This document shows positions 25,526-63,701 of a DNA stretch of 64,000 bases, piece after piece (position 1 is the first letter of the stretch; every line of letters starts with the position of its first letter). The notes below the pieces were generated by a model. The model saw only the letters and a program-made list of their open reading frames with translations, was not told the origin of the DNA and did no database searches. Made by a program: the position numbers and the translations under genes. This stretch comes from Promethearchaeota archaeon (GTDB taxonomy: Archaea > Asgardarchaeota > Lokiarchaeia > Sigyniarchaeales > SOKP01). The DNA is taken from positions 128,001 through 192,000 of the forward strand of contig JAHLWS010000078.1 of assembly GCA_019057795.1 (NCBI GenBank), written 5' to 3'.

Positions 25526-26128
25526 ATGAAGTCAATGGATTCGAAAGACGCAGAAAACGAAACGGAAAAATTAACAAAAGTACTTTCTATTGTTCAAAAT
25601 CTTTACTATAAGAAGAAGGAACAATTAGACGATTTAAAATTAGAAATCTCTGAATTACACATCGTTTTAGATTATTTAAACTCATTGATTTCAAAGCAAT
25701 CGTTTTCAAGTGCAGATGAAATTTATTCGAAGCTTTTAAATCGTGAAGAGAAAACGATTGATGATTATTTTAAAAAAGATATTTCACAGGAAGATTTTAA
25801 TGGAACTAACATTAAAAGAAAAATTTTCTCGAGCAAAAATCAGAATGAAGAAGATTTATTATGTGTGCTTAACCTCTACGACTTTAAAAGAGTTGAGATA
25901 AAATTTATTGATCCTGAAAAAAGGGAGATACAAGAAACTTCAGAGAATTTTATTAACATTTTTCTCAAGGGGGCACTTATTAAAATAAAAGAAAATAACC
26001 CTAATTTGAGCATTAATTACAATTTTTTCAAAAATTCCGATAAAGTTGAATATATTCACATATCTAATTTAAGTTCAATTGAAGACTATGATTTGATAAC
26101 GGACAAAATCCGCGAATTATTATATTAA
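25526..26128 (+). CDS. Hypothetical protein (target of cassette 1; C-terminus probably cassette-supplied)
   Basis: C-terminus VEYIHISNLSSIEDYDLITDKIRELL is repeated at 29325-29417. Confidence 0.7.
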   Translation: MKSMDSKDAENETEKLTKVLSIVQNLYYKKKEQLDDLKLEISELHIVLDYLNSLISKQSFSSADEIYSKLLNREEKTIDDYFKKDISQEDFNGTNIKRKIFSSKNQNEEDLLCVLNLYDFKRVEIKFIDPEKREIQETSENFINIFLKGALIKIKENNPNLSINYNFFKNSDKVEYIHISNLSSIEDYDLITDKIRELLY

Positions 26129-26171: not shown

Positions 26172-26254
26172 AATTTTCATCATTGAATCTTTTTTTTTTG
26201 TTCTTTATAAATAACTGTGATAATTGTCTAGTAAATAATTTAAAACAATAAATT

Positions 26255-26869
26255 ATGACGGACAATATTGAAGAACATTATATTGAATCAGAATATGAAG
26301 AAATTTTTAATGATTGGTATGAAATTGAGGGCGCAAGAAAAATAAAAGAACTTTCACGCCAACTCCGAACTTTTTTCAATTACAAGACAGAATTAATAAG
26401 ATATCGATTTCGATCCAGTCCAAATCTTGCCGAAAATTATACAAATAATAAATTTTTTGCTCAAAAACAAAAGATTGAATCATTATCTGATGAATTTATA
26501 ACCCTTTTAAAAAAAATTAAGAAACATAGACAATCCCTTGAACAAGTAATTCGTTCTCTATTTTTTAATAATAATAAAACAGTATTAAACAAACTTTCAG
26601 AAATCACAGAGAAGTTGTCCATTCTACTCCACTATTTCTCAGAGGAATGCATTCATGATCATCCAAGATTCCTCAAATTCATCGTTGTATTAGCACAAAA
26701 CATTTGTTTGGTGAAAATGTGCTTGTATGCTGAATTCAGCGAATTTTATGGGGAACTTGAAGTTAACTACAATGGTTTAAATGGAGAAATGGAGATAATA
26801 TTAGAAGAAACGCTAGGAGATAAAATTAAAAAAACAAAAAATCAACTTGAGGAGAGATTGAGGATATGA
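26255..26869 (+). CDS. Cassette ORF-A, conserved helical protein of unknown function (copy 1)
   Basis: YEEIFNDWYEIEG.RKIKELSRQLRTFFNY shared by three copies; ATGA overlap with ORF-B. Confidence 0.85.
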   Translation: MTDNIEEHYIESEYEEIFNDWYEIEGARKIKELSRQLRTFFNYKTELIRYRFRSSPNLAENYTNNKFFAQKQKIESLSDEFITLLKKIKKHRQSLEQVIRSLFFNNNKTVLNKLSEITEKLSILLHYFSEECIHDHPRFLKFIVVLAQNICLVKMCLYAEFSEFYGELEVNYNGLNGEMEIILEETLGDKIKKTKNQLEERLRI

Positions 26870-29283
26870 AGGCATACACAAATGTATCACGGAAAACAGT
26901 GGAAGAGGATCGAGTAGCAGTCTGCCCAAATTTTGGGTGTGAGTTTATGACACGAGTTAAACCACTTAAGTTAAAGTTCTTAGGTTTTAGTAAGCATCCT
27001 AAATGCAAGAAACATCACATCCCTTTAGTTTACATAGATGAAAGGATCGGGGATTTCGTGGATGCTGCATTAGTATGCTTGTTTGATAAAGCAGGACTCC
27101 CACCACGTGAATTACTCGAGGGAGTAAAATCAAAATTCCCCAATGAAATTACCTCGTTTATAGAAGGATGGGTGTATAGCATCACGGTTGGAAGGGGAGC
27201 TCCCATTGTATCACGTTACATGGATGCCGTTTCGAATGCATATCTCAAGCAATTAACCAAAAAACAGATAAAATCATTGAAAAAAGGAAATAATTCAAAA
27301 CCAAATCTCGTGAAAAAAGCAATTAAGGATGGTCTGGATGAAATTGCACTTCAATATACAAGACTACTTAAGCATCTTAGAGCCCATTCCGAGATCCTCA
27401 TTGATCATCAAAGACTTAAATCACTTTCAAGAAGTCTCCAAAATTATTTGAATGATTGGCATAAGGATATTTTAAAGTATAATGAAATCATAATTTTCTC
27501 AGAAAATAAGCAAGAAATGACTTTAAAAGATATCAAGTGCAAATATGATCAAATTCTTAATGTTGGCACCTGTCGATGCCTTCTTGGATTAAATCCAGAA
27601 AGTAAAAAAATTAAGAAAACAAAATTAACTGCGTTTGATCGGTTTTCCGCTTATATAGAATTTTTTTCTGAAAGTATTACTGAAAAATTTACTAAGTCCG
27701 ATATTAAAGGACTTAACTCAGATATTAATCCAATTAAAAAGTCAATAAAAAAAATGAAATCGTACGATAATTTTGAAAGTGGTAATAGTCAAAAGATTAA
27801 GGAATATTTAAAAAATCTTGATTGGGAGAATTTAACTAACAATTGGACATTATTACATAGAGAACATCATACACATCCTTACAAGGAAATTCTGCTTGAT
27901 CCTCATAAAGATCCTTCCAATGAAAATCCTTTATGGAAACACGAAATTTGGTTGAAGCGAGTTTATGCTGATGAAAATTATAATTTTTCAGATAGTCTTA
28001 TTTCTCGAATCACTGGTATTGCTCGCGACACAGTCAGAAAATACCGTAGGAAATTTAATATTAGCAATGGCTACTACAACACGACTCAAAAACCAAAACT
28101 TAGTAAAGAATTGATTGAGAAAAGGGAGAAAATTCGCAATTTTAATTGGAACATTAATATTGATTGGATGATACCCGTCGGGATTCATGGAGATTTGTCA
28201 ATTCTTAACCCAAACAAATATTGTAGTTTTGATAATCCTTTATACAAGCATAAGCTATGGTTAAAAAGAGTCTACGAAGATGAAGAGCTTGATTTGAATG
28301 GAGTTGAGATTGCCAAAATATGCAGTCTTAAAGATCAGAAACCTATTAGTTATTGGAGAAAAAGATTAGGGATACCTAAAAAAAGAAAAGGTATTTTTCT
28401 AAATAAGTCAGGACATAAGTTGGTTCTCACTCCAAATTCCTATATACACCCTCAGCGTGGTAGACTCTATCAACGTGCTGAACATACACTAATCATGGAA
28501 AGATATTTAAATAAAAATCTATCAAGACGCCAATTAGCAACACATCCGGATTTGATTCAGGGATGGTTAGGAGAAGAGGAGTATTTTTATATAAAAAAAG
28601 ATTGTCATGTTCACCATATCAATTTTGTAGGTTTAGATAATAGAATCGAGAATCTTTGGTTATTTTCAAGTAATCGCGCACATGGATTAGTGGTTAATGA
28701 GCTACATCAATGCCTTTCAATTTTGATTAAGTTACATCAAATATTTTTTAAAGAGGGCATGTATTTTCTAAATGAAGATTTTGATTGTCTTCAGTTAGAA
28801 AGAGATGATATTCGGAGTAAGTTAAATCTTAATATTGTAATAAACCACTCTCTCTCTCGATTTTATGATAAGCGAAGAAATTCTTTTAGTGTAGCGATGT
28901 CTGCCTCCTATAACAATCCCTTTATTTCTCCAAAAAAAGGAATTGATTATGTTTATATGTATGAACATAGATATATCATCGAGCAATATTTTAGGACGCT
29001 TTTAAGAAAAGAGACTATATTACTAGAGGAGCACATTGATTATCAAAAAGCTCAAGAATTCATAAATCCACAAGGGTTTTTAAAACCCGATGCTATCGTG
29101 CACCATGTAAATTTCGATTCTCGAGATAATCGGTTATTAAATTTATATGTGTGTGAAATTTCTGAACATAGGCTTGTTCATGGATTAATTTACCAATTAG
29201 TCGAAAGATTACTTGATATGGGATTGATATATTTCAGTAATGGGAAATATTTTTTGGATAACACTTTGACTAATAAAATGTGA
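26866..29283 (+). CDS. Cassette ORF-B copy 1: constant Zn-finger N-terminus, 2 HTH-like modules and 2 HNH modules
   Basis: CPNFGC...CKKH; EH...VHHINFVGLDNRIENL and EH...VHHVNFDSRDNRLLNL. Confidence 0.85.
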   Translation: MKAYTNVSRKTVEEDRVAVCPNFGCEFMTRVKPLKLKFLGFSKHPKCKKHHIPLVYIDERIGDFVDAALVCLFDKAGLPPRELLEGVKSKFPNEITSFIEGWVYSITVGRGAPIVSRYMDAVSNAYLKQLTKKQIKSLKKGNNSKPNLVKKAIKDGLDEIALQYTRLLKHLRAHSEILIDHQRLKSLSRSLQNYLNDWHKDILKYNEIIIFSENKQEMTLKDIKCKYDQILNVGTCRCLLGLNPESKKIKKTKLTAFDRFSAYIEFFSESITEKFTKSDIKGLNSDINPIKKSIKKMKSYDNFESGNSQKIKEYLKNLDWENLTNNWTLLHREHHTHPYKEILLDPHKDPSNENPLWKHEIWLKRVYADENYNFSDSLISRITGIARDTVRKYRRKFNISNGYYNTTQKPKLSKELIEKREKIRNFNWNINIDWMIPVGIHGDLSILNPNKYCSFDNPLYKHKLWLKRVYEDEELDLNGVEIAKICSLKDQKPISYWRKRLGIPKKRKGIFLNKSGHKLVLTPNSYIHPQRGRLYQRAEHTLIMERYLNKNLSRRQLATHPDLIQGWLGEEEYFYIKKDCHVHHINFVGLDNRIENLWLFSSNRAHGLVVNELHQCLSILIKLHQIFFKEGMYFLNEDFDCLQLERDDIRSKLNLNIVINHSLSRFYDKRRNSFSVAMSASYNNPFISPKKGIDYVYMYEHRYIIEQYFRTLLRKETILLEEHIDYQKAQEFINPQGFLKPDAIVHHVNFDSRDNRLLNLYVCEISEHRLVHGLIYQLVERLLDMGLIYFSNGKYFLDNTLTNKM

Positions 29284-29324: not shown

Positions 29325-29417
29325 ATCGAATACAATACTATTTCTAATTTAAGCGCTATCGAAGATTACGATTTAATAACCGCATAAATACGAGAATTAT
29401 TAACTCGTGAGATGTAA
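29325..29417 (+). pseudogene. Stranded, decaying original 3' end of gene 25526-26128
   Basis: Translates IEYNTISNLSAIEDYDLITA*IRELLTREM*, with an internal stop. Confidence 0.8.
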
Positions 29418-40674: not shown

Positions 40675-41067
40675 TTAAATAACATGTAATGCTTGGTTTA
40701 AAATATCTAAATTTTTAACAAATTCTTCCTTAAATAGATGATAATACGTAAATTTTTGTTTTTTATATCCTTGTATTAATCCTGCTACTACAAGCTTTCT
40801 TAAATGATGAGATATTGTCGATTGGGACTTATCTAATATAGTTTCTAATTCGCATACACATCTATCTTGTTCTTTTAAAGCGTTAATAATGATCAACCTT
40901 TCTTTAGACGCTAAAGCCAATGTGAATTTCTCAATCGCATCAAATGTTTTATTTTCTTCTAATTCTTTCCCAAATTTTAGCAAATTATTAAAGAAACCAT
41001 TTGAGTTAGAGCATTCTTTACAAGCACATAGCATTATCTTAATTTCTGATTCGCGTTTTTCTTTCAT
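40675..41067 (-). CDS. arsR: ArsR/SmtB transcriptional regulator
   Basis: RCVCELE...SQSTISHHLRKL; divergent from acr3. Confidence 0.85.
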   Translation of the reverse strand: MKEKRESEIKIMLCACKECSNSNGFFNNLLKFGKELEENKTFDAIEKFTLALASKERLIIINALKEQDRCVCELETILDKSQSTISHHLRKLVVAGLIQGYKKQKFTYYHLFKEEFVKNLDILNQALHVI

Positions 41068-41120: not shown

Positions 41121-41191
41121 TAAATCGATAAATATAAATCTATAACATTTTAAGGTTTCTTTACGCTCAAATCGACAACCTTAAATTTGAA
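41121..41191 (+). promoter_or_regulatory. arsR-acr3 intergenic promoter/operator (second copy at 45682-45752)
   Basis: TAAATCGATAAATATAAATCTATA...TCAAATCGACAACCTTAAAT conserved colinearly in both copies. Confidence 0.65.
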
Positions 41192-41243
41192 GTACAACTT
41201 TTATCAAATAATAATTATTCAATCTTAAAGGAATTAAGTAAAA

Positions 41244-42330
41244 ATGAAATCAGAAGAACCAAAAGAAGAATCAAAAAAAATTAGTTATTTTGAAAAACTT
41301 CTTCCGTTATGGGTCGCATTATGTATAATAGCGGGCATTATTCTTTCTCAGCTCATCCCTGAAATAAGCGAAGCTATTAATTCTTTACAAATAGGAGGAA
41401 TTTCTATTCCCATTGGAATCTGCTTATTCCTGATGATGTATCCCGCTATGTTGAATCTTCAATTTTCTGAGTTGAAAAAATTAGGTAAAAACCCAAAACC
41501 AATTATATTAACGCTTATATCTAATTGGGTCGTTGCTCCTTTCGTAGGGTTAGCAATGGCAAACATTTTTTTACCTGGATATGAACAGTTAATAGTTGCA
41601 ATCATTCTTCTAAGTTCAAGCCCATGTACTGCTATGGTCCTAATCTGGGGCTGGATGGCAAGAGGGAATCAAGAACAAAATGTAATTAATACTAGTTTAA
41701 ATACGATAACTATCATAATCGGTTATGTCCCTTTAGTCGCATTATTAACAGGCATTAAAAATATTCCTATAGATATCTTTCTTTTGTTGATTTCTTTGGT
41801 GTTTTTTATAGGAGTACCATTATTATTGGGTATAGTTAGTAAAAAAATTATTATTTCAATAAAAGGAGATGCTTGGTTTAACGATGTCTATAGACCAATT
41901 GTAGGAAAAGTTTCGATTGTAGCACTATTAACGACTTTAATTGTTCTTTTTTCCCTAAATGGAACTGTCTTGATAAATAATCCTGATCTGTTGCTCTTAA
42001 TTTCTATACCTCTTTTAGTGGGATTTGTAATTGTTGTTAGTTTTAATATATTAATTACAAAACTCTTTAAGTTGAGATATGAGGAAGCTGTTATTACGGT
42101 TATAATAGGGTCTTCAAGTCATTTTGAAATAGCTATTGCTACTGCGATTGCTATGTATGGGATTGGCTCTATTGCGGCATTAGGAACTACCATGGGACTA
42201 TACGATTCTTAGTTTTACTATGAACGGGTCATTCTGGGAAGTTCCTGTGATGCTATCGATTGTATATTTGGGAGGATACTTAGGAAAACGAGGATTTTGG
42301 GAGAGTTCAAAGAGTAGGATTGAGAAATAA
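41244..42330 (+). CDS. acr3: Acr3 arsenite efflux transporter; predicted join(41244..42201,42233..42330), 351 aa
   Basis: LMMYPAM, SNWVVAP, SPCTAMV, SSHFEIAIA; the last helix FWEVPVMLSIVYL is in frame only after removing 31 nt. Confidence 0.85.
42202..42232 (+). other. Predicted 31-nt BHB mRNA intron in acr3
   Basis: Helix GACT(42196-99)/GGTC(42227-30), bulges ATA and ATT, inner hairpin; cuts after bulge nt 2 give ATG GGA CTA TTC TGG GAA. Confidence 0.75.
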
Positions 42331-42412
42331 ATAATAATTTTAAATTTTTTTTTACCTTTAATTCTAGGAATATGCTAAACTCATTTCGTTAATAAAATAG
42401 AAAAGGGATTAT

Positions 42413-44971
42413 TTAGATAAATCTTATTATATCACCAAAAGTTTGCCTTAGCTTGTCGATTTGTTTCAGATCTCTCCAATTACATTTAGGAAGTTTTCTA
42501 AGACGATAATTATTCACTTTAAATAATTTCCTTACTTGTTGCTCAAACTCAGAATGTATGAATTCTACGTAGTTATCTCGTCTTATTGTATGATCTACAA
42601 TAATATAAATATCAATATATCCACTATTTTTTAGATTTTGTTTAAAATTATCACTAGATTTTAAATGTTTATAATCGTTGGCATGGGATCCATTTCTAGG
42701 AGTTCTATGCCTGAATCTATCAACATATTCTTCTAGTGAAAAATGCTCGCGATCCCAATATTCCCCTGCAACGCTTAGAGTAAATACATCTTTTCCAATT
42801 TTTATATCGACATAAGCAAAAGCATCAAAATGCATGTGTCTATATCTCCGTAATGATTTATAATCGCTAGGCAAAATATCAACAACCTGATCAAAAGGAA
42901 GAACTTCATATAATGAAGTTGGCCTTTCACCAAAATTCTTATGAAATAATCTTGAAAGTAAATAGCGCATTATCCTTTCATTCGTTATTTTACCTCCCGA
43001 ACATATATCACATGATTTTAGATCTAAACTATAATCATCAGGTTTAGATTTAAATTTAAAACTTGGATGATACTTACAAGACCATAGAAAAACTTCTCTG
43101 GTTGGCTGTTTTAACTTCTCAATATGACTCAACGGGGTTTCCAGATTAAAATTAAATTTATCACCCCGAGCAATTATTTGTTGGCTCGTTAATCTATGAC
43201 TTTCATTATAACATTCAGCACACCAATTATTATAAGATCTAATACGTTCCATGCTAATGCTAAATTCTCCATGTTTATTACAAATAAATGGGAACAGTAT
43301 TTCTGAGACCTTTTGTTGTATATTGCGCGGTTTCTTTAATTCTTGATTTATTCGAGTTTTAAATTCAGTTTTAGTAAATTTAAATCTTGCATTTCTTAAT
43401 TCCGCTTCTTTAACAAAATCTTGATATGAATGGGACTTTTCAATTCTTGAACATAGAGGACATTTAGCGCGATATAAATGTTTGTAAGCAACATTAAATT
43501 TTTCATGGTTGGAACATTTACAAGAAAGTTCAAATAATAAGTTTTCTATTAGAGTTCCTGTCAGCACAGTTTCTAAATATTCAAATATTTTCGTCTCCAT
43601 ATTAAGTCCTAAAGTATTGATTCTACTACAATAGGAATTCCATTTCTCAATTAAGCTAAAAACACGCTTTTCAGCACAAATTAATTTGTAATCAAGTATT
43701 AAATTAAAAAAAACAGTATAATTGCTTGGAAATTCTTGTTTCAGATTAAAAAACCAATTATCTAAAACTTTTTCATCTATTAAGGAGTTAGGTCTCTTAA
43801 ATTTATTAGATTTCAAAGTAGCGAAAGCTAAAGCTTCAGAACCATTAGATGTACCATATAATTTCTCGGCAATTCTATTATCTGGTAAATCTTCTTGATA
43901 TAATTTTATTTGTTTCACTAAATTTACAAGAAAATCTTTCGATATGGAACTACTATTCTTTATATTTGGAAATTGATTCTTAATAAATTCCTTATAATGC
44001 TCTAAAGCTAAAACTTCGATTTTTTTGATTTTTCTTGGTCGATTTTCATTGGTTTGCTTCATGGAATCAAAACCTTCTTTTTCTTTTGGTTTACAATTTT
44101 CTAAATCCACAAATCTTTTTATAAGTTTAATCACATCAGATTTAGTAAATTTCGGAGTTAGCCCATTAGTATAAAATTCATGATATGCAGAAAATCTATC
44201 AAAAGCAGTTACCTTTGATTTCTTAATTTCTTTATTTTCAGGATTTAATCCGAGAAGGGATCTACACGTACCAATGTTTAGGATTTTATCATAATTACTC
44301 TTGATTTCTTTTAAAGTCAGTTCGGTTTTATTTTCTAACGATTTTATTACCTCAATGCCCTTTATTATTTCTTTTTGCCATTCTTTCAAGAAATTTCGAA
44401 GGTTTTTAGAAAGCGGTTTAAGATTTTCATACTCAGAAAAGATTTTCGAATGAACTCGAAGGTGCTTAAGTATCCTCTTATATTGGATGGTTATTTCATC
44501 CATTCCATGTCTAATTGCCTTATTCACGAGATTTGGTTTAGAACTTTCTCCTTTTTTTAGTGCTTTAATCTGTTTTTTAGTCAATTGCTTGAGATATGTA
44601 TTCGAAACCGAGTCCATGTAATATGAAACTATAGGAGCTCCCCTTCCTATTATGATACAATATACCCATCCCTCTATGAACGGGGTAGTTTCATGGGGGA
44701 ATCTTGATTTTACACCCTCAATTAATTCTTGTGGAGGAAGTCCTGCTTTATCAAACAAGCATGCTAACGCAGCATCCACGAAATCACCAATCCTTTCATT
44801 AACATAGACTAAAGGAATGTGATGTTTCTTACATTTAGGATACTTCCCAAAACCAAAAAATCTTAATTTAAGAGGTTTAACTCTAGTCATGAACTCACAC
44901 CCAAAATTTGGACAGATTGCGACTCGATCTTCTCTCACTGTTTTTCGTGATACATTGGTGTATGCTTTCAT
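42413..44971 (-). CDS. Cassette ORF-B copy 2: constant N-terminus, Zn-ribbon repeats and Vsr/PD-(D/E)XK-like nuclease
   Basis: C..H...C..C repeats; NERIMRYLL...HFDAF...VAGEYWDREH. Confidence 0.75.
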   Translation of the reverse strand: MKAYTNVSRKTVREDRVAICPNFGCEFMTRVKPLKLRFFGFGKYPKCKKHHIPLVYVNERIGDFVDAALACLFDKAGLPPQELIEGVKSRFPHETTPFIEGWVYCIIIGRGAPIVSYYMDSVSNTYLKQLTKKQIKALKKGESSKPNLVNKAIRHGMDEITIQYKRILKHLRVHSKIFSEYENLKPLSKNLRNFLKEWQKEIIKGIEVIKSLENKTELTLKEIKSNYDKILNIGTCRSLLGLNPENKEIKKSKVTAFDRFSAYHEFYTNGLTPKFTKSDVIKLIKRFVDLENCKPKEKEGFDSMKQTNENRPRKIKKIEVLALEHYKEFIKNQFPNIKNSSSISKDFLVNLVKQIKLYQEDLPDNRIAEKLYGTSNGSEALAFATLKSNKFKRPNSLIDEKVLDNWFFNLKQEFPSNYTVFFNLILDYKLICAEKRVFSLIEKWNSYCSRINTLGLNMETKIFEYLETVLTGTLIENLLFELSCKCSNHEKFNVAYKHLYRAKCPLCSRIEKSHSYQDFVKEAELRNARFKFTKTEFKTRINQELKKPRNIQQKVSEILFPFICNKHGEFSISMERIRSYNNWCAECYNESHRLTSQQIIARGDKFNFNLETPLSHIEKLKQPTREVFLWSCKYHPSFKFKSKPDDYSLDLKSCDICSGGKITNERIMRYLLSRLFHKNFGERPTSLYEVLPFDQVVDILPSDYKSLRRYRHMHFDAFAYVDIKIGKDVFTLSVAGEYWDREHFSLEEYVDRFRHRTPRNGSHANDYKHLKSSDNFKQNLKNSGYIDIYIIVDHTIRRDNYVEFIHSEFEQQVRKLFKVNNYRLRKLPKCNWRDLKQIDKLRQTFGDIIRFI

Positions 44972-45576
44972 GAAGTCAATCTCTCCTCGAGTTGTTTTTT
45001 TGGATTTCTTATCTTTACTCTTGGTGCTTTTTCTAATAGACTCTCTAATTCTCCTTCTAAACTATGGTAGTTTATTCTAAGTTCCTCATAAAACTCGCTG
45101 AATTGTATATGTAAGCACTTTTTCACTAAACATATGTTTTTTGCCAATACAACTACGAATTTGAGTAAGCTTAGATGATCATGAATGTTCTCATCCGAAA
45201 AATAGTGAATTAAAATGGATATTTTTTCTGTTATTTCTGAAAGTCTGATTATGGGTGTTCTATTATTGTTAAAAAATAGAGATCGTATCCCTTCCTCAAG
45301 AGTTTGAGTGCTGTTTTTTAATTTCTTAAGCATTGTTATGAATTCATGGGTTAATGTTTCTAATTCTTGCTTTCGACTGAAAAATTTATTGTTTCTATAA
45401 TTTTCAGCAAGATGGGGATTGGTCCAAAATCGATATCTTATCACTTCCATCCTATAATTAAAAAAAGTTCGGAGTTGACGTGAAAGTTCTTTTATTTTTC
45501 TTACACCCTCAATCTCATACCAATCATTAAAAATTTCTTCATAATCAGTTTCAAAATCTTCCATATACTCTGTCAT
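44968..45576 (-). CDS. Cassette ORF-A copy 2
   Basis: Homologous to 26255 and 59548; ATGA overlap with ORF-B. Confidence 0.85.
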   Translation of the reverse strand: MTEYMEDFETDYEEIFNDWYEIEGVRKIKELSRQLRTFFNYRMEVIRYRFWTNPHLAENYRNNKFFSRKQELETLTHEFITMLKKLKNSTQTLEEGIRSLFFNNNRTPIIRLSEITEKISILIHYFSDENIHDHLSLLKFVVVLAKNICLVKKCLHIQFSEFYEELRINYHSLEGELESLLEKAPRVKIRNPKKQLEERLTS

Positions 45577-45681
45577 AATTTATTAACATCTTTTACTAAC
45601 CAATTATCACAGATATATTTAAATAAAAAAGTGAGTTGAGAAAAGCGGACAATGCCTTTATATAATATCATAATTAGATAA

Positions 45682-45752
45682 TAAATCGATAAATATAAAT
45701 CTATAGCATTTTAAACTGTGATGTAGGTCAAATCGACAACCTTAAATGTGAA
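45682..45752 (+). promoter_or_regulatory. Second copy of the ars promoter/operator, facing the hgcA-like genes
   Basis: 71-nt colinear match to 41121-41191. Confidence 0.65.
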
Positions 45753-45809
45753 ATATTATACTATATATTGAACCATCATAATATGAAGAGTTAATTCAAA
45801 AATTTGATT

Positions 45810-45884
45810 GAAGTACCTGTGATGTTATCCATAGTTTACTTAGGAAGATATCTTAAAAAGCGAGGATTTTGGAAATCCAATTGA
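45810..45884 (+). pseudogene. Stranded original acr3 3' end
   Basis: EVPVMLSIVYLGRYLKKRGFWKSN*, ending 21 nt before the next ORF. Confidence 0.85.
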
Positions 45885-45905: not shown

Positions 45906-47609
45906 TTGAATAAAAGAAATACTGTAATAGGTCTGAAAATAATGGCTGTAGCTTTTATGCGTAAATTAGAGGAAGAACCAGAGACTTACGATTCGAAGTT
46001 TACTTCACTTACGAAAGGGGTGAATGTCAATGTTCATAGCTGGGTATTGGATCAAATTCAATCAGATCAATCAATTTTAGAAATTGGGTCTGGGACGGGT
46101 TCATTAGCTTCAAAAATGGTTTCAAAAGGAAATATTGTTGTTGCAATTGATAATAACATTCAAATGATTAATTATGCTAAGCAGAAATACTCAGATACTT
46201 TAAAAAATGGTACGCTGTTGTATCGATTAGGTTCATTTACGGATTTACCCGTTGAAAAGAGATCGTTAGATTTAATTGTCAGCACATTTCTATTATCAGA
46301 ACTTCGCCCGTTAGAGCAACAAATATTTCTTAGAAACGCCTGGAAAGCGTTAAAACCAAATGGTCGCTTGATAATAGCCGCAGAGTTTGTTCCATCAGGG
46401 TTTTGGAAGGTCAATTTTAAAATAAAAAGGTGGTGGTTCAAAAAAAAACTGCGTCGTCTTCGTTTAAAAAGTACCTTTTTAGTTAAATGGTTTTTCAATT
46501 ATATTGAACCATTAGGTTTTAAGATCGGATACCAAAAGAAGTGGAAGCACGGTTCAATTCAAGCAATTGAATTACTTAAAATTAACGATAACGGAGAAGA
46601 CGAACCCGATTATTATCGTCCTAAAACAAAGAAGTTTAAAGGACTAGTTTCGCAATTAAGAATTTATCGATGTCTTTTTACCGGACAGATAGATAGAGTT
46701 CCAATAGAACCTGGAATATATAAATCTGGTAATCCCAATCCCAACTCTCCTATTATCGTAACGGCTAATTATGAGTATACTTATATAAAATTAATGCGTG
46801 ATTTACAAAGTATTGATGCGTGGGTTTTATGTTTGGATTCTAATGGAATTAACGTATGGTGCGCTGCTCGAGGAGATGATTTTGGCAATAAGCAATTACT
46901 AGAAGCCATTGAAGCAACAGATATTCGAGTAGTTTCAGAGAAAAAGACCTTAATTCTCCCCCAACTTTCAGCAGGAGGGGTTGCTATACCTCAATTACCA
47001 GAAAAATTTCCTTTCAAAGTAAAATACGGTCCTGTTTGGTCAAAAGATTTAAAACAATTTTTATCCGAGCGACCAGTCCGAAAACCAGATTCTATGAAAC
47101 TTGCCAAATTTACACTGTCTCATCGTATTCGGGCTGGAATCACACATACTACGTTTTTATTCCGAAAAATCTTTTTAATTCCGATAATTGCAATATTACT
47201 CTCGATTATCGCCTTGAATAACGTCACTATCTTATGGTGGCTTGGAGAATTAGTAATATGGATCGTTCTCTCAAATGCAATAATATCAATCTTCTTTCCA
47301 CTCTCTAAATTTACTCGTAAATTTATTACTAAAGCTGTATTTTTTGGATGTTTTAGCATATTTTTCATAGGGGCAATTTCTTGGATATTTCATAGTTCAT
47401 ATCTATATTTACTCTTGAACTTTGCTATATATTTCTGGATAACATTCTTTTCTACGATGTCTTTTAGCGGTTATACGATGTCAACCAGTCCGAAAGACAT
47501 TCAAGCAGAATATCCTGTTTTTAGAAAAATAAATCTTACTCTAATAATTTTAGTTGTAATTCTATTAGGAATAAATATAATATTTTTTATGTTAAATATA
47601 ATAAATTAA
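45906..47609 (+). CDS. hgcA: Class I SAM methyltransferase fused to an HgcA-like corrinoid protein with TM domain
   Basis: LEIGSGTG; EPGIY.SGNP...SPIIVTANY, GINVWCAARG, LILPQL, YGPV; TM helices; SFSGYTMSTS. Confidence 0.75.
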   Translation: MNKRNTVIGLKIMAVAFMRKLEEEPETYDSKFTSLTKGVNVNVHSWVLDQIQSDQSILEIGSGTGSLASKMVSKGNIVVAIDNNIQMINYAKQKYSDTLKNGTLLYRLGSFTDLPVEKRSLDLIVSTFLLSELRPLEQQIFLRNAWKALKPNGRLIIAAEFVPSGFWKVNFKIKRWWFKKKLRRLRLKSTFLVKWFFNYIEPLGFKIGYQKKWKHGSIQAIELLKINDNGEDEPDYYRPKTKKFKGLVSQLRIYRCLFTGQIDRVPIEPGIYKSGNPNPNSPIIVTANYEYTYIKLMRDLQSIDAWVLCLDSNGINVWCAARGDDFGNKQLLEAIEATDIRVVSEKKTLILPQLSAGGVAIPQLPEKFPFKVKYGPVWSKDLKQFLSERPVRKPDSMKLAKFTLSHRIRAGITHTTFLFRKIFLIPIIAILLSIIALNNVTILWWLGELVIWIVLSNAIISIFFPLSKFTRKFITKAVFFGCFSIFFIGAISWIFHSSYLYLLLNFAIYFWITFFSTMSFSGYTMSTSPKDIQAEYPVFRKINLTLIILVVILLGINIIFFMLNIIN

Positions 47610-58810: not shown

Positions 58811-59401
58811 ATGAATGTAGACGAAATACTTTCAGCTGTAAGAACTTTCGCATATAATAATTCTGAAAATGACGATCTCCATGGTTTTAAACATGTTGAG
58901 CGAGTACTTAATTTATGTGTGCAAATAGGGACTGCTTTAAATGCGAATTTATTAGCAATTAAAATAGCTGCCTTACTTCACGATGTTGGTAGAATTCATG
59001 AGAAAAAAAATGCTGCAAAGAATCACGCTGAGTTATCCGCTGAAATGGCTGAAAAATTTTTACAAAAAACTAACTTCAATATTAACATTGACGATATTGA
59101 AAATATTATTCACAGCATTCGAGCGCATTCTTTTTCGAATAAAATAAAACCTACAACTCTTGAAGCAAAAATATTGTCGGACGCAGATAAACTAGACACG
59201 CTTGGAGCAATAGGTTTATACAGGACAATTATATATTCATTTAAATTGAAAAATGGTGGAATAGAGAAAGTAATTGAACATTTAGAAAAAAAAATAATAA
59301 AATTAAAAGATCGAATGTATTTAGACATTTCAAAAGAAATAGCAAAAGAAAGACAGAAAATTATCTTAGATTTTTATTATGAAATAAAAAAGGAAGTGTA
59401 A
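58811..59401 (+). CDS. HD-domain hydrolase (C-terminus probably cassette-supplied)
   Basis: HGFKHVERV, LLHDVG, DADKLD. Confidence 0.85.
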   Translation: MNVDEILSAVRTFAYNNSENDDLHGFKHVERVLNLCVQIGTALNANLLAIKIAALLHDVGRIHEKKNAAKNHAELSAEMAEKFLQKTNFNINIDDIENIIHSIRAHSFSNKIKPTTLEAKILSDADKLDTLGAIGLYRTIIYSFKLKNGGIEKVIEHLEKKIIKLKDRMYLDISKEIAKERQKIILDFYYEIKKEV

Positions 59402-59547
59402 TATCTAAATTTTTATACTTTTTTGAAAACCACCTTCATTTTTCTTTCCTTTCAAGTCCTATATTCGAACATAAAACTTCTTGTCACAATTTGTTCTTTA
59501 AATATAACTATCATAATTAGGTAGTAAAAGAATTATGATAATAAATT

Positions 59548-60159
59548 ATGACAAACTATATTGAAGATTCTTATATTGGATCAGAATATGATGATATTTT
59601 TAATGATTGGTATGAAATTGAGGGCGCAAGAAAAATAAAGGAACTTTCACGCCAACTCCGAACTTTTTTCAATTATAAGGCTGAAGTAATAAGATATCGA
59701 TTTCGACCCAGTCCGAATCTTGCCGAAAATGATACAAACACTAAATATTACAGTCGAAAGCAAGAAACTGAATCATTAACTCGTGAATTCATAATCTTGT
59801 TAAAAAAGCTTAAGAAAAATGGACAAACACTTGAGCAAGGGATTCAATCTCTCTTTATTTTCAATGATAAAGCACATTTTAATAAACTTTCAGCCATAAC
59901 TGAGAAATTATCCATGTTACTTCACTATTTTTCAGAAGAAAGCCTTTACATTCATCCTAAATTTCTCAAATTTAGCGTGACATTAGCACAACACCTTTGT
60001 TTAGTGAAAAAATGCTTGAATGCGCAATTTAGCGAATTTTTTGAGGAACTTGAAATAAATTACAACAATTTAGAAGAAGAACTTGAAGACTTAATCGAAA
60101 TCACGCCAATTAAGAAGCAAAAATTAAAAAAGCAACTTGAGGAGAGATTAACTTCATGA
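59548..60159 (+). CDS. Cassette ORF-A copy 3
   Basis: Homologous to the other two copies; ATGA overlap with ORF-B. Confidence 0.85.
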   Translation: MTNYIEDSYIGSEYDDIFNDWYEIEGARKIKELSRQLRTFFNYKAEVIRYRFRPSPNLAENDTNTKYYSRKQETESLTREFIILLKKLKKNGQTLEQGIQSLFIFNDKAHFNKLSAITEKLSMLLHYFSEESLYIHPKFLKFSVTLAQHLCLVKKCLNAQFSEFFEELEINYNNLEEELEDLIEITPIKKQKLKKQLEERLTS

Positions 60160-63100
60160 AAGCATACACAAACGTATCACGGAAAACCGTGGGAGAGGAT
60201 CGAGTAGCAATCTGCCCTAATTTTGGATGCGAGTACATGACACGAGTTAAGCCTCTTAAATTTAAGTTCTTAGGTTTTGGGAAGCATCCTAAATGCAAGA
60301 AACATCACATTCCTTTAGTATTTGTTGATGAAAGAATCGTTGATTTCGTGGATGCTGCCCTAGCGTGCTTGTTTGATAAAGCAGGACTCCCCCCAAGTGA
60401 ATTACTCGAGGGTGTAAAATCAAAATTTCATAATGAAGTTACCTCGCTTGTAGAAGGATGGGTGTATTGCATCACGGCTGGAAGGTGTGTGTCCATTATT
60501 TCACGTTACATGGATACGATTTCTAATGCGTATCTCAAGCAATTAACTAAGAAACAAATTAAGGCACTTAAAAAGGGAGATGATTCAAAACCAAATCTCG
60601 TGAATAAGACGATTAAGGGTGGAATTGATGAAATTACTATTCAATATACGAGGATTCTCAAGCACCTGAGAGCTCATTCCGAGATTCTCATTGATCATCA
60701 AACGCTTAAATCACTTTCTAAAAACCTCCGAAATTATTTGAAGGATTATCAAAAGACCATATTAAAGCGCAATGAGATCATTAATTCTCCAGAAAATAAG
60801 CGCGAAATGAGTTTAAAAGAAATCAAGAGTAATTATGATCAAATCCTAAACGTTGGGACATGCCGTTGTCTTCTTGGATTGAATCCCGAAAGTAAAGGAA
60901 TCAAGAAAGCAAAAATAACTTCATTTGATAGATTTTCTGCTTATCTTGAATTTTTTAGTGAAGGATTAACTGGAAAATTTACAAAATCCGCAATCTGTGA
61001 TTTAGTAAAAACTAAGTTCACTTATCAAGATAATATTGATATACTTGATGAGACAAAATATAAAATACCCTTTCAAAATCAAAAACCTAAAAGTATCATG
61101 ACAGTTAAATGCACTCAAGAAGAACTTCTAGGCAAAATTTTTAAGTTCGGGGAATCTCTACAATTAGGAATTTTAACGATATATTATATTTGTGATATAT
61201 TTCCAAAAAAGAATGAAATTGATAAGTTATTTTTTTCTGGAAAGGAATTAAGTCAGATTCTTAGCAGATCAGAATATTTTTTTAATAATATTAGAAGGGA
61301 ACTGTTAGACGAAAATTTTGTTCAATACTGCGGAACAATTTCTAAAAAAAAACATAGCTTTGTAAAAATTTATACAATTACAAAACAAGGCGCAGATTTT
61401 GCAGCGGAAATTATTGAGTCAAAAATACAAGAATTTTCTAATCTTTTTAATGATTTAACCCTCAGATTAGAACAGCGATATAAAGAATTAATGTCCTCAG
61501 AAAATAACATTGTTATTCGTTCAATAGAAGAAATCAACAATGATTTAAAAAAAAAAGCTGAAGAAAACAATGCTAAAATGCTCACTACATACAAATCTGA
61601 TGAAAATAAAATAATTTTTAGATGTAAGGGATGCAATAAAGAATTTAAAGATATATACAAGAATATGAAAAGAAGACAAGAACCAAAAATAGCTTGCCCT
61701 TTCTGTTTTCCAGAATTAAGACCTAACACTTATATTCCTGAAGAATTAAGAGAAAAAATAGCAAAATATGTTTTAGTTGAATTAAGACAAATTACTATTT
61801 ACAATTTAGTAGAAAAGGAAATTTTAGAAAATATAGTTTCTATAAGAGATTCTGTTTTCAGACAAATAGAAATCAAAAAGGTTCCGATTTTAGACAATAG
61901 AATTCAAGCTGATGCCGATTTTAGACAATATATTAAGAATTATATTCAACTTATCGTTAAGCTTCTTATAAAAATAAAATTATTAAATGAGACCAAACAA
62001 AAAATAAATATTACTGAAGTAGCAAAAGAAACTTATGATAAAAATATAGTTTCCTTAAAATCTTGGGTGGTTTTTTCAACGAAGATTATTCAGTATTTAA
62101 GACAAAATCTTGATTTTAATATTAGATCACGTTATCATGATACATTCCAAAAATCTACTCAAGTATCGATTAGGAATTTTAGGAATTTGTATAAATTAAT
62201 TGATGATATTACAATTACTTATTTGAAAAAAGATTTACAGATGAAAATAGATATTCATTACAATGGAATATGTCAAGGAAATAATGGAACTTGTCAATTC
62301 AATATTGATTACAGATTCTTACCTGCTCTCTCCCATCACCATCTACTCAAAAGTTACAAAAAACTCATAACAAGAAAAGAATTTAAATATATCCTTCCTC
62401 ATACTATTCTAAACTTAAAATTTGAGAGAGCTATTAAATTAATGCAGACTCAAATTGGTGGATTAGGTTTAGCATGTCTGAATTGCCATTTTTCTAAACA
62501 TCATGTAATATATAATTTTTCACCGATTTTTACATTTCTTCAGAAACTATCCTTAGAAAATATCAATGAAAATCCATTAGATGTTTTAATCAAATTGAAG
62601 TCATTAGTAAGCATATATTACAACCAAAAAAAAGAAAAAACTAAAATGTCTAAAAATTACACTCAAGCTCAACAAAAAACAATGATAAAAGATGGTATTA
62701 GAAAATCGACTTTAGCATTCGTTAAAAAAAAATATAGTATTCAGTTTCTATTTGGAAATGATTATGTTTGTCCTATTTGTCGAAAAGCTAATATTAATGA
62801 ACACCTCAATTGTTTTGTTGCTCATCATACTAATGAAGATATTTTTAGAGATGATCTTGAGAAAATAGAATTTGGTAAAGAATATAAAAAAAAGGATATT
62901 GATTGGTTAATTGAAAATCTAATTATTCAAGAATGTGTGTTTATTTGTATAAATTGTCATCAAATGCTTCATGCTGTAAATTTTCGAGATTATGCTCTTA
63001 CTATCTTGGAAAGTAAAACCGATGAGATATTTGTAAGGAATTATTATAGTCAATTAGACAAACAGATAAGTAAATTAAAAAATAGAATCTTAATTTTAAA

Positions 63101-63524
63101 AAAAAAAATTGAAAATCATTTGATTCAAATTCCAAATCCGTTACAGTTAATTTTTGAAAAGGGAGACGGTTTAAAGAGAAATTTAATATGTATTTACTAT
63201 ATTTGTGAAATTTTTTCAAAAGATAAAGAGAATCCTTTCTTTACTTCTGGTGAGTTGAATTTTATTATTAATAAGGTGCGTTCATTTAGGAATTTTAAAC
63301 ATAAATTAATTCATCTTGATTATATACAAGCTGTTGAGAATTTTCAAAGAATTTATCATATTACTCCTAAAGGTAAGGAAAAAGCAAGAGAATTGATTAA
63401 TCAAAAATTAAATGATTTTCCGAAAAGATTCAGAGATTTAATTGATATTTGGGAAAATAATTACGTAAAATATCAGCTAAAGATGAAACAAAATAAGTAT
63501 TTTTTTGGAAAAGAAATTTTATAA
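60156..63524 (+). CDS. Cassette ORF-B copy 3: constant N-terminus, wHTH, Zn ribbon, two HNH-like modules and wHTH
   Basis: LSHHH...ACLNCHFSKH; CPIC...VAHH...ICINCHQMLH; YTITKQG and YHITPKG winged helices. Confidence 0.75.
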   Translation: MKAYTNVSRKTVGEDRVAICPNFGCEYMTRVKPLKFKFLGFGKHPKCKKHHIPLVFVDERIVDFVDAALACLFDKAGLPPSELLEGVKSKFHNEVTSLVEGWVYCITAGRCVSIISRYMDTISNAYLKQLTKKQIKALKKGDDSKPNLVNKTIKGGIDEITIQYTRILKHLRAHSEILIDHQTLKSLSKNLRNYLKDYQKTILKRNEIINSPENKREMSLKEIKSNYDQILNVGTCRCLLGLNPESKGIKKAKITSFDRFSAYLEFFSEGLTGKFTKSAICDLVKTKFTYQDNIDILDETKYKIPFQNQKPKSIMTVKCTQEELLGKIFKFGESLQLGILTIYYICDIFPKKNEIDKLFFSGKELSQILSRSEYFFNNIRRELLDENFVQYCGTISKKKHSFVKIYTITKQGADFAAEIIESKIQEFSNLFNDLTLRLEQRYKELMSSENNIVIRSIEEINNDLKKKAEENNAKMLTTYKSDENKIIFRCKGCNKEFKDIYKNMKRRQEPKIACPFCFPELRPNTYIPEELREKIAKYVLVELRQITIYNLVEKEILENIVSIRDSVFRQIEIKKVPILDNRIQADADFRQYIKNYIQLIVKLLIKIKLLNETKQKINITEVAKETYDKNIVSLKSWVVFSTKIIQYLRQNLDFNIRSRYHDTFQKSTQVSIRNFRNLYKLIDDITITYLKKDLQMKIDIHYNGICQGNNGTCQFNIDYRFLPALSHHHLLKSYKKLITRKEFKYILPHTILNLKFERAIKLMQTQIGGLGLACLNCHFSKHHVIYNFSPIFTFLQKLSLENINENPLDVLIKLKSLVSIYYNQKKEKTKMSKNYTQAQQKTMIKDGIRKSTLAFVKKKYSIQFLFGNDYVCPICRKANINEHLNCFVAHHTNEDIFRDDLEKIEFGKEYKKKDIDWLIENLIIQECVFICINCHQMLHAVNFRDYALTILESKTDEIFVRNYYSQLDKQISKLKNRILILKKKIENHLIQIPNPLQLIFEKGDGLKRNLICIYYICEIFSKDKENPFFTSGELNFIINKVRSFRNFKHKLIHLDYIQAVENFQRIYHITPKGKEKARELINQKLNDFPKRFRDLIDIWENNYVKYQLKMKQNKYFFGKEIL

Positions 63525-63530
63525 GACTAT

Positions 63531-63701
63531 GGATTTACCATTAGAAATAAAGGGGGAATCGAACAAGTAATTAACCATTTGGAAAATAAAATCTTGAAAT
63601 TAAAGGATGGATTGTATTTAGAAGTCTCTAAACAAATCGCAGAAGAGAGAAGTAAAATAATTATAGACTTTTATAACAAAATAAGAGAAGAAATAATGTA
63701 G
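63531..63701 (+). pseudogene. Stranded original 3' end of the HD gene
   Basis: GFTIRNKGGIEQVINHLENKILKLKDGLYLEVSKQIAEERSKIIIDFYNKIREEIM* aligns to NGGIEKVIEHLEKKIIKLKDRMYLDISKEIAKERQKIILDFY. Confidence 0.9.

Follow-up and report, generated by a model that had tools for sequence, protein, structure and literature searches.

The arsenite pump gene acr3 of a Promethearchaeota archaeon (GenBank assembly GCA_019057795.1; 4.95 Mb, 31% GC) is interrupted by 31 nucleotides (nt) that probably constitute a bulge-helix-bulge (BHB) intron. The gene lies in the 64,000-nt stretch of contig JAHLWS010000078.1 analysed in this study (positions 128,001 to 192,000; hereafter the window, numbered from its first letter). 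Among named proteins, the nearest come from Lokiarchaeota/Promethearchaeota. With a probability of roughly 0.7, the insert is spliced from the mRNA by the endonuclease EndA and the ligase RtcB, and travels with a homing-type cassette, which brings a replacement exon as well. This proposal draws on the anatomy of the locus, the conservation of the insert, the mosaic ancestry of the interrupted gene, the empty sites present in close relatives, and the co-occurrence of intron and cassette.

The acr3 open reading frame (ORF; 41244-42212) encodes 322 amino acids (aa), ends ...GTTMGLYDS*, and stops at 42210-42212. The second piece of the gene lies in the +1 frame, where it encodes (F)WEVPVMLSIVYLGGYLGKRGFWESSKSRIEK and reaches 42330. 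When 42201 is joined to 42233, the two pieces give a 351-aa product that reads ...MGLFWEVPVML... across the break; the predicted spliced junction is GGACTAT^TCTGGGAA. The early stop and the 351-aa product had both been proposed in an initial annotation made from the sequence alone, and both hold. The parts of the gene are:

41244 to 42201, plus strand: acr3 exon 1, native to about 42179 (Pfam SBF, E 8e-37), with 95-97% nucleotide identity to the alleles without the intron in L033 and L032
42202 to 42232, plus strand: candidate 31-nt BHB intron
42233 to 42330, plus strand: imported replacement exon 2, encoding transmembrane segment 10 (TM10), the tail and the stop codon

More than 100 intact Asgard Acr3 homologues carry exactly MGLFWEVP[VI]M at the corresponding place with identical spacing; thus, the 31 nt are a precise insertion relative to the Acr3 family. 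The dinucleotide AT precedes both edges of the insert; three pairs of cuts yield one identical product, and the bulge rule described below selects one of them. A search for a target-site duplication at the edges revealed nothing beyond this 2-nt repeat. The insert also contains, unremarked in the initial annotation, a TAG (42210) followed, after 7 nt, by an ATG (42220) in frame with exon 2. A separate case is the Acr3 homologue P0011 on a 65-kb Lokiarchaeota contig, which ends ...FWEVPVMLKSWILEIKSD and diverges from the Acr3 family six codons past the intron site; this may reflect a different insertion at a nearby point.

The insert and its flanks show the geometry of a tRNA intron. The initial annotation had described a GACU/GGUC helix, AUA and AUU bulges, an inner hairpin and a short, G-U-rich outer helix, and every one of these elements is present where it was placed. 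The structure as a whole occupies one interval:

42185 to 42243, plus strand: conserved RNA structure, with 92.9% of alignment cells paired, versus 36-57% when the partner columns are slid, and with compensatory changes at three pairs

An exon-exon stem (42185-42195 with 42234-42243) is followed by the central 4-bp helix, in which GACU (42196-42199) pairs with GGUC (42227-42230). The 3-nt bulges, AUA (42200-42202) and AUU (42231-42233), lie on opposite strands, each 3' of its own helix strand, and the inner hairpin spans 42203-42226. The insert therefore has the core of a BHB motif, a 4-bp central helix with two 3-nt bulges, and cuts after the second base of each bulge would leave the 351-aa product, which is identical to the intact homologues in MGLFWEVPVML. 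This cutting rule was calibrated on two tRNA genes of the same genome, tRNA-Thr (22-nt intron at 37/38) and tRNA-Ala (30-nt intron), whose introns share the register of the acr3 insert and its intron-helix pattern. Among random 31-nt spans of the genome, 0.3% pass a relaxed BHB test and 0.023% equal the observed quality. A permissive BHB scan returned about 100 hits in 240 nt and did not pick up the first rpl11 intron (see below) at its expected edges.

Both a splicing endonuclease and an RtcB ligase are encoded in the genome, the former as two EndA paralogues (PF01974, about 200 aa each) and the latter with an E value of 1.7e-168. Asgard EndA belongs to the (alpha-beta)2 type, with a loop that confers broad specificity (PMC5829648), and Asgard tRNA genes are heavily interrupted (bioRxiv 10.64898/2026.10.13.758758). 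ARAGORN called only 18 tRNA genes in the 4.95 Mb, 10 of them with introns, so that a full census of tRNA introns is impossible from this output; interruptions probably keep most tRNA genes from being called. A second interrupted protein gene is also present. The only rpl11 gene found in the genome (contig C73, about 108700-108990, minus strand) lies in three pieces (MSKTN...GGPPI, GPAVGPTGIN and IKDVVDAV...), separated by two roughly 30-nt inserts that hold in-frame stops; this fits routine mRNA splicing in this genome.

The insert is shared by other members of the phylum. In total, 18 distinct alleles with a 31-nt insert at the identical acr3 site were recovered from Promethearchaeota metagenome-assembled genomes (MAGs) and metagenomes, by searching the phylum for the pattern, by two scans of collections with exon codons alone as anchors, and by reverse look-ups; among the best 120 protein matches, eight end MGLY[DAY]S. 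In an alignment of 16 distinct alleles (A1), every cell of the central helix (100%) is paired. This helix has undergone a C-G to U-A double change in L028, and again in L041, as well as a change from U.G to U-A in L019. In the inner stem, pair 30:51 is U-A in five alleles, G-C in four and unpaired in seven, and pair 35:47 has changed from U.U to A-U, U-A or G.U in six. RNAalifold independently recovers the central helix, the hairpin and a long exon-exon stem.

The conservation of the insert also indicates that it is maintained. Across eight units with the same cassette, mean identity is 0.82 for the intron and 0.80 for the coding sequence of the cassette gene F1, versus 0.52 for a non-coding spacer 100 nt away, so the insert is under selection and not merely young. 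A recent sweep of the 66-nt block alone was considered as a cause of this conservation and is unlikely, given the 0.52 identity of the spacer in the same units and the 66-82% identity of their F1 proteins. Third codon positions vary very little from -22 to +13 (diversity 0.13 and 0.03, versus 0.58 and 0.50 further out), a span that coincides with the predicted RNA structure. The codons GGA CTA directly precede the intron in 17 of the 18 intron alleles, versus none of five intron-less sequences. In the Acr3 frame of exon 2, the proportions of synonymous (pS) and nonsynonymous (pN) differences are 0.53 and 0.12 (pN/pS 0.23; 17 alleles), the other two frames giving ratios of 0.8-1.2, and all 17 alleles are free of stops and frameshifts in the Acr3 frame. 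This frame-specific selection indicates that exon 2 is translated in a frame that exon 1 reaches only by the removal of 3n+1 nt.

The intron lies inside an imported block of about 3.6 kb (42180-45809) that comprises the recoded end of exon 1, the intron, the replacement exon 2 and a two-gene cassette. Three features mark the borders of this block:

42180 to 42201, plus strand: last stretch of exon 1, imported and recoded by synonymous changes (co-conversion tract); it provides the 5' strands for both the outer and the central helix
45810 to 45884, plus strand: stranded native acr3 3' end, EVPVML...GFWKSN* (45810-45881 plus the stop codon at 45882-45884; tblastn)
45906 to 47609, plus strand: native downstream gene for a methyltransferase with a CdhD-like domain (Pfam), which marks the end of the insertion

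The 22-nt tract has six synonymous differences from native alleles, versus about four in the 98 nt upstream, and it is common to all intron alleles, whatever their exon-1 lineage. An element-type tract thus stands upstream of the intron in an otherwise native exon 1, with a foreign exon 2 beyond it, the pattern of co-conversion. Empty sites were found in the close relatives L033 (95-97% identity) and L032 (about 90-95%), where an intact acr3 is followed directly by the methyltransferase gene; the intron-less site of the L033 type reads ...ACAACAATGGGGTTATTCTGGGAAGTACC.... The stranded end, annotated from the start as beginning at EVPV, does so at 45810, a point of the gene that corresponds to 5 nt past the exon junction. 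It is 95-97% identical to the intact L032 and L033 genes, whereas the exon 2 now in use matches native ends at only 78-80%; the sister genomes are therefore closer to the displaced end than to the one that replaced it.

The two exons also differ in ancestry. The window, L018, L027 and L014 have near-identical exons 1 and differing versions of exon 2, and the window exon 2 is closest to that of L020, though the exon 1 of L020 is only about 70% identical. Exon 1 tracks the host lineage and exon 2 tracks the element lineage, indicating that the block moves between hosts. Stranded ends occur in eight loci, with left edges from -16 to +11 nt of the intron site; such clustering is as expected if the DNA was broken there. 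The placement of the intron at the cassette junction, as first annotated, is accurate in that the intron sits where native ends begin in these eight loci, but the junction of native and foreign DNA lies about 22 nt upstream, so the intron belongs to the interior of the imported block. A reading in which the entire 3.6-kb cassette forms the intron and the stranded end serves as exon 2 was rejected, because TTCTGG is missing from the stranded end and because loci devoid of a stranded end keep the 31-nt solution.

The cassette consists of two genes and a copied regulatory region:

42413 to 44971, minus strand: F1, 852-aa cassette protein with an N-terminal module of about 285 aa, zinc-ribbon-like repeats, and a putative Vsr/PD-(D/E)XK-like C-terminal domain (domain modularity and structural model)
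44968 to 45576, minus strand: F3, 202-aa partner gene overlapping the start of F1
45680 to 45755, plus strand: copy of the arsR-acr3 intergenic region (operator/promoter), inside the cassette and upstream of F3

The N-terminal module of F1 (about 285 aa; 44102-44971, minus strand) recurs at 56-77% identity in over 100 Asgard proteins, whose C-terminal parts are swapped (HNH_3, LAGLIDADG_3/intein-like, PDDEXK_5, RNase_T, DUF4379, and winged-helix/HTH). In this genome the module always follows an F3-like gene, giving six pairs (four on C78, one each on C54 and C41), three of which lie in the window; F3 is also paired with F1 in seven related loci. F3 had no family match in Pfam, PADLOC or NCBIfam. 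The last 213 aa of F1 were modelled with a predicted local distance difference test (pLDDT) score of 77, and a 562-aa model reached 62. The best VIA matches of the C-terminal model were the homing endonuclease I-Bth0305I (Z 6.5), Vsr (Z 6.3) and a DUF559-like protein (Z 5.2), and a language-model search of the C-terminus gave DUF559 as the lead (0.93). The invariant motif HFD...EYWDREH in the F1 sequence fits a nuclease of the Vsr/PD-(D/E)XK type. F1 is probably a site-specific DNA endonuclease. Three results count against this assignment and leave it weak: structural Z scores of 5-6.8 are middling and below the tool's caution line of 8, Foldseek searches with the 562-aa and 213-aa models returned nothing at E <= 0.001, and the C-terminal half of F1 had no match in Pfam, NCBIfam, PADLOC or a PDB sequence profile.

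The co-occurrence of intron and cassette, a check suggested by the initial annotation, holds. Among 135 genomes of the family, close homologues of the F1 C-terminus were found in seven, each time beside an acr3 with the intron and on its contig; the intron is also present in two more genomes, which lack a close F1 C-terminal homologue. The F1 gene is present at 11 of the 16 intron loci with enough downstream sequence; in the window its stop lies 83 nt from that of exon 2. Three reverse look-ups that started from F1 C-terminal homologues all led to acr3 3' fragments nearby, including those of stand-alone copies in defence-like islands.

Several observations weigh against the intron and its linkage to the cassette. 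The strict outer helix is short, with one G-C and two G-U pairs (G95-C34, G94.U35 and U93.G36), and a CCA/UGG pairing competes with it, turning the 3' bulge into a 3x4 internal loop both in the minimum-free-energy (MFE) fold and in the RNAalifold consensus. In the single-sequence MFE fold, CCA/UGG takes the place of the strict outer helix, although the hairpin, the AUA bulge and the 4-bp helix are all there; the folding energy is ordinary (z = -0.35). A strict hBHBh' motif calls for 2 bp or more in each flanking helix, and for the intron helix h' the window shows 2 bp, whereas most alleles have a single pair and then a G.A mismatch. Because of the competing pairing, the motif is best described as relaxed; relaxed motifs are the kind accepted by (alpha-beta)2 EndA enzymes (PMC5829648). 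Covariation is modest, with few events among related sequences, and so amounts to support and not proof. At five of the 16 intron loci with enough downstream sequence, the F1 gene is missing from that position; these five show other cargo, such as the SMODS/SAVED genes of L003, and look like decayed or rebuilt units. Finally, the TAG, 7 nt and ATG arrangement is present in 14 of the 18 alleles, in which a two-piece pump is possible.

That arrangement is the basis of an explanation without splicing, in which a stop-restart module ends a 322-aa body and begins a 36-aa TM10 peptide (MNGSFWEVPVML...), the two assembling in the membrane. Most alleles have both the TAG at 42210 that ends exon 1 and the ATG at 42220 in frame with exon 2, and a split gene would likewise explain the purifying selection on exon 2. 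The start is not conserved, however: the ATG has become AAG in L014, L017 and L021 and AGG in L037, with no alternative start, and exon 2 is still intact in these four. Moreover, L019 and L026 (an indel pair) no longer have the frame-0 TAG, no Shine-Dalgarno-like sequence is present, and the 7-nt spacer and the third codon positions are conserved to the same degree as the codons, beyond what coding demands. A split gene would also leave the compensatory changes with exon 1 unexplained, and is considered improbable. Even less credible is translational recoding, either by ribosome bypass of the 31 nt, as in T4 gene 60, or by a +1 shift at UCU UAG. A stop codon soon after the break and then a hairpin recall the gene 60 gap, but the take-off and landing codons are unmatched (the triplets before UUC or UGG differ from CUA and UAC), a +1 shift would add about 10 residues to TM10, and the frame layout differs in L019 and L026.

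The strongest competitor, though still unlikely, is a dead gene, in which the conserved block, roughly 66 bp long, serves a mobile element as a site for protein binding or recombination (an imperfect palindrome), acr3 is inactivated, and exon 2 is kept by recent origin or gene conversion. The hairpin is indeed also a DNA palindrome, and the block lies at the breakpoint of the element; selfish elements can spread despite gene damage, and the covariation events are few. But purifying selection has acted on exon 2 in one frame only across deep divergence (pS 0.53), 17 alleles being free of stops and frameshifts, and the units are old, as the divergence of their F1 proteins and of the adjoining spacer attests. 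The G.U pairs and the exon-intron compensatory change match RNA pairing rather than DNA symmetry, and the length and position of the insert restore the protein exactly. A spliced BHB intron, as the initial annotation had proposed, is well supported by comparison of the sequences: the geometry, register and position recur in 18 alleles, compensatory changes accompany them, exon 2 is under selection, the ATG is lost in four alleles, and EndA alpha/beta and RtcB are present.

The events at this locus may be proposed as follows. The acr3 RNA with its exon flanks (42185-42243) would fold into the exon-exon stem, the 4-bp helix between two 3-nt bulges, and the intron hairpin; the (alpha-beta)2 splicing endonuclease would cut past the second base of each bulge, and RtcB would ligate the exons, so that the full 351-aa arsenite pump is made. 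At the DNA level, the cassette endonuclease most likely cuts acr3 alleles that lack the intron, at the intron site or close to it. A copy with the cassette would then serve as the repair template, which amounts to homing and would leave the old 3' end stranded downstream. The intron and recoded flanks would probably keep the enzyme from cutting the copy of its own host. Self-immunity through the intron is plausible because the M, W, F and E codons of the presumed target leave little room for synonymous escape. The six synonymous changes beside the intron could protect the site without it, which weighs on this idea.

The cassette is one of several in the window. Two further F3+F1 cassettes lie at 26255-29283 and 59548-63524, both on the plus strand, and each of the three window copies sits between two diverged copies of a host-gene 3' end. 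In the further cassettes these copies, which derive from the host gene upstream, are 26045-26122 versus 29325-29402, the right copy including a stop, and 59255-59398 versus 63552-63695. The ends in use there look like continuous ORFs, so a mini-intron is unnecessary at these sites. The roughly 57 nt upstream of the three window F3 genes are alike (79-82%; 45577-45633 versus 59487-59547 and 26197-26235), and this common segment is probably a promoter or 5' leader of the cassette family. It is possible, though somewhat short of even odds, that F3+F1 constitutes a widespread Asgard gene-drive family, in which a conserved module of about 285 aa with interchangeable nuclease or DNA-binding ends (HNH, LAGLIDADG, PD-(D/E)XK and Vsr-like) invades host gene ends with a recoded replacement, and plants a tRNA-type mini-intron where recoding cannot protect a conserved site.

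Other features of these loci concern their regulation and neighbouring genes. The native context upstream of acr3 includes one further gene:

40675 to 41067, minus strand: arsR-family regulator, divergent from acr3 (Pfam HTH_5, E 5e-17), syntenic at the empty-site loci L032 and L033

The copy of the arsR-acr3 intergenic region inside the cassette is 84% identical to 41121-41194 and is kept in the cassettes of L018 and L027. It may put the selfish genes under arsenic-responsive control, or drive the downstream methyltransferase gene. In L003 (9500-13148), two SMODS-like genes and a SAVED gene (CBASS-like) lie between exon 2 and an F1 remnant. In L035 and L036, the neighbours of the stand-alone F1 C-terminal genes are helicases, a HEPN gene and an AAA_15/AAA_21 ATPase of 1338 aa. 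Defence islands may have a hot spot at the acr3 3' end.

Both the before and after states of this insertion are at hand: empty sites, 18 diverged occupied alleles, defined block edges, a linked nuclease-like gene, and decayed units with the intron only. Two questions are thus directly testable, namely whether Asgard mRNAs are spliced by the tRNA machinery, and whether selfish nuclease cassettes serve as a vehicle of intron gain. If the insert is spliced, it represents one route by which introns can come to occupy protein genes of the archaea most closely related to eukaryotes, and if the gene-drive reading is true, that route would be a working one for ORF-less introns. The arrival of short ORF-less BHB introns has been stated to be an open question (bioRxiv 10.64898/2026.10.13.758758). 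For annotation, truncated acr3 genes in Asgard MAGs (318-338 aa, with MGLY[DAY]S at the end) probably represent intact genes that are spliced.

In the literature searched, archaeal protein-coding introns are documented only for cbf5, and no paper describing an acr3 mini-intron cassette was found. The BHB intron of cbf5 pre-mRNA occurs in Crenarchaeota (Desulfurococcales and Sulfolobales), is 16-44 bp long, and has been shown experimentally to be spliced (PMC2738675). The acr3 insert resembles it in being short (31 nt), ORF-less and located in a protein-coding gene with a BHB-type motif, and in the presence of a heterotetrameric splicing endonuclease that accepts relaxed motifs. Unlike cbf5, the acr3 case is found in an Asgard archaeon and in a non-essential gene, was imported with a replacement exon and a cassette, has empty sites in close relatives, and is a predicted rather than a demonstrated case of splicing. 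Archaeal rRNA BHB introns, as outlined in PMC2738675, encode LAGLIDADG homing endonucleases. They exemplify the same intron class mobilised by a DNA endonuclease, which is putative in the acr3 unit, but their nuclease ORF lies inside a long rRNA intron, whereas the acr3 intron is a 31-nt ORF-less element of an mRNA with a free-standing nuclease-like gene.

A closer arrangement is that of F-CphI, a free-standing endonuclease whose gene neighbours an ORF-less group I intron in the psbA gene of a cyanophage (Zeng, Bonocora and Shub 2009, as summarised in PMC6083498). Both systems have the nuclease gene, putative for acr3, outside the intron and next to the intron-bearing gene. In the summarised account of psbA, the intron occupies the site that is cut in intron-less alleles and is presumed to shield the copy of its host, with the nuclease presumed to mobilise the intron. 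Differences from that account are that the acr3 element would be a protein-dependent BHB intron on an archaeal chromosome instead of a self-splicing group I ribozyme in a phage, and that the acr3 unit brings a replacement exon and strands the old one; its cleavage and protection are proposed by analogy. The replacement of a gene end is paralleled by the mobile ORFs (mORFs) that create gene hybrids in fungal mitochondria, including atp6 of Allomyces macrogynus and atp6, atp9, cox2 and nad3 of Glomus (PMC3630166). There, as in acr3, an endonuclease gene (putative in the acr3 unit) brings along a foreign C-terminal gene end in place of the native one, and the native end is displaced downstream and remains closest to the sister species (95-97% versus 78-80% in acr3). 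The fungal elements carry LAGLIDADG or GIY-YIG endonucleases, and their foreign gene end is fused in phase in the DNA, whereas the acr3 unit is a two-gene F3+F1 cassette with a predicted Vsr-like domain, and its new gene end is placed out of phase by the 31-nt intron and would need RNA splicing to be read.

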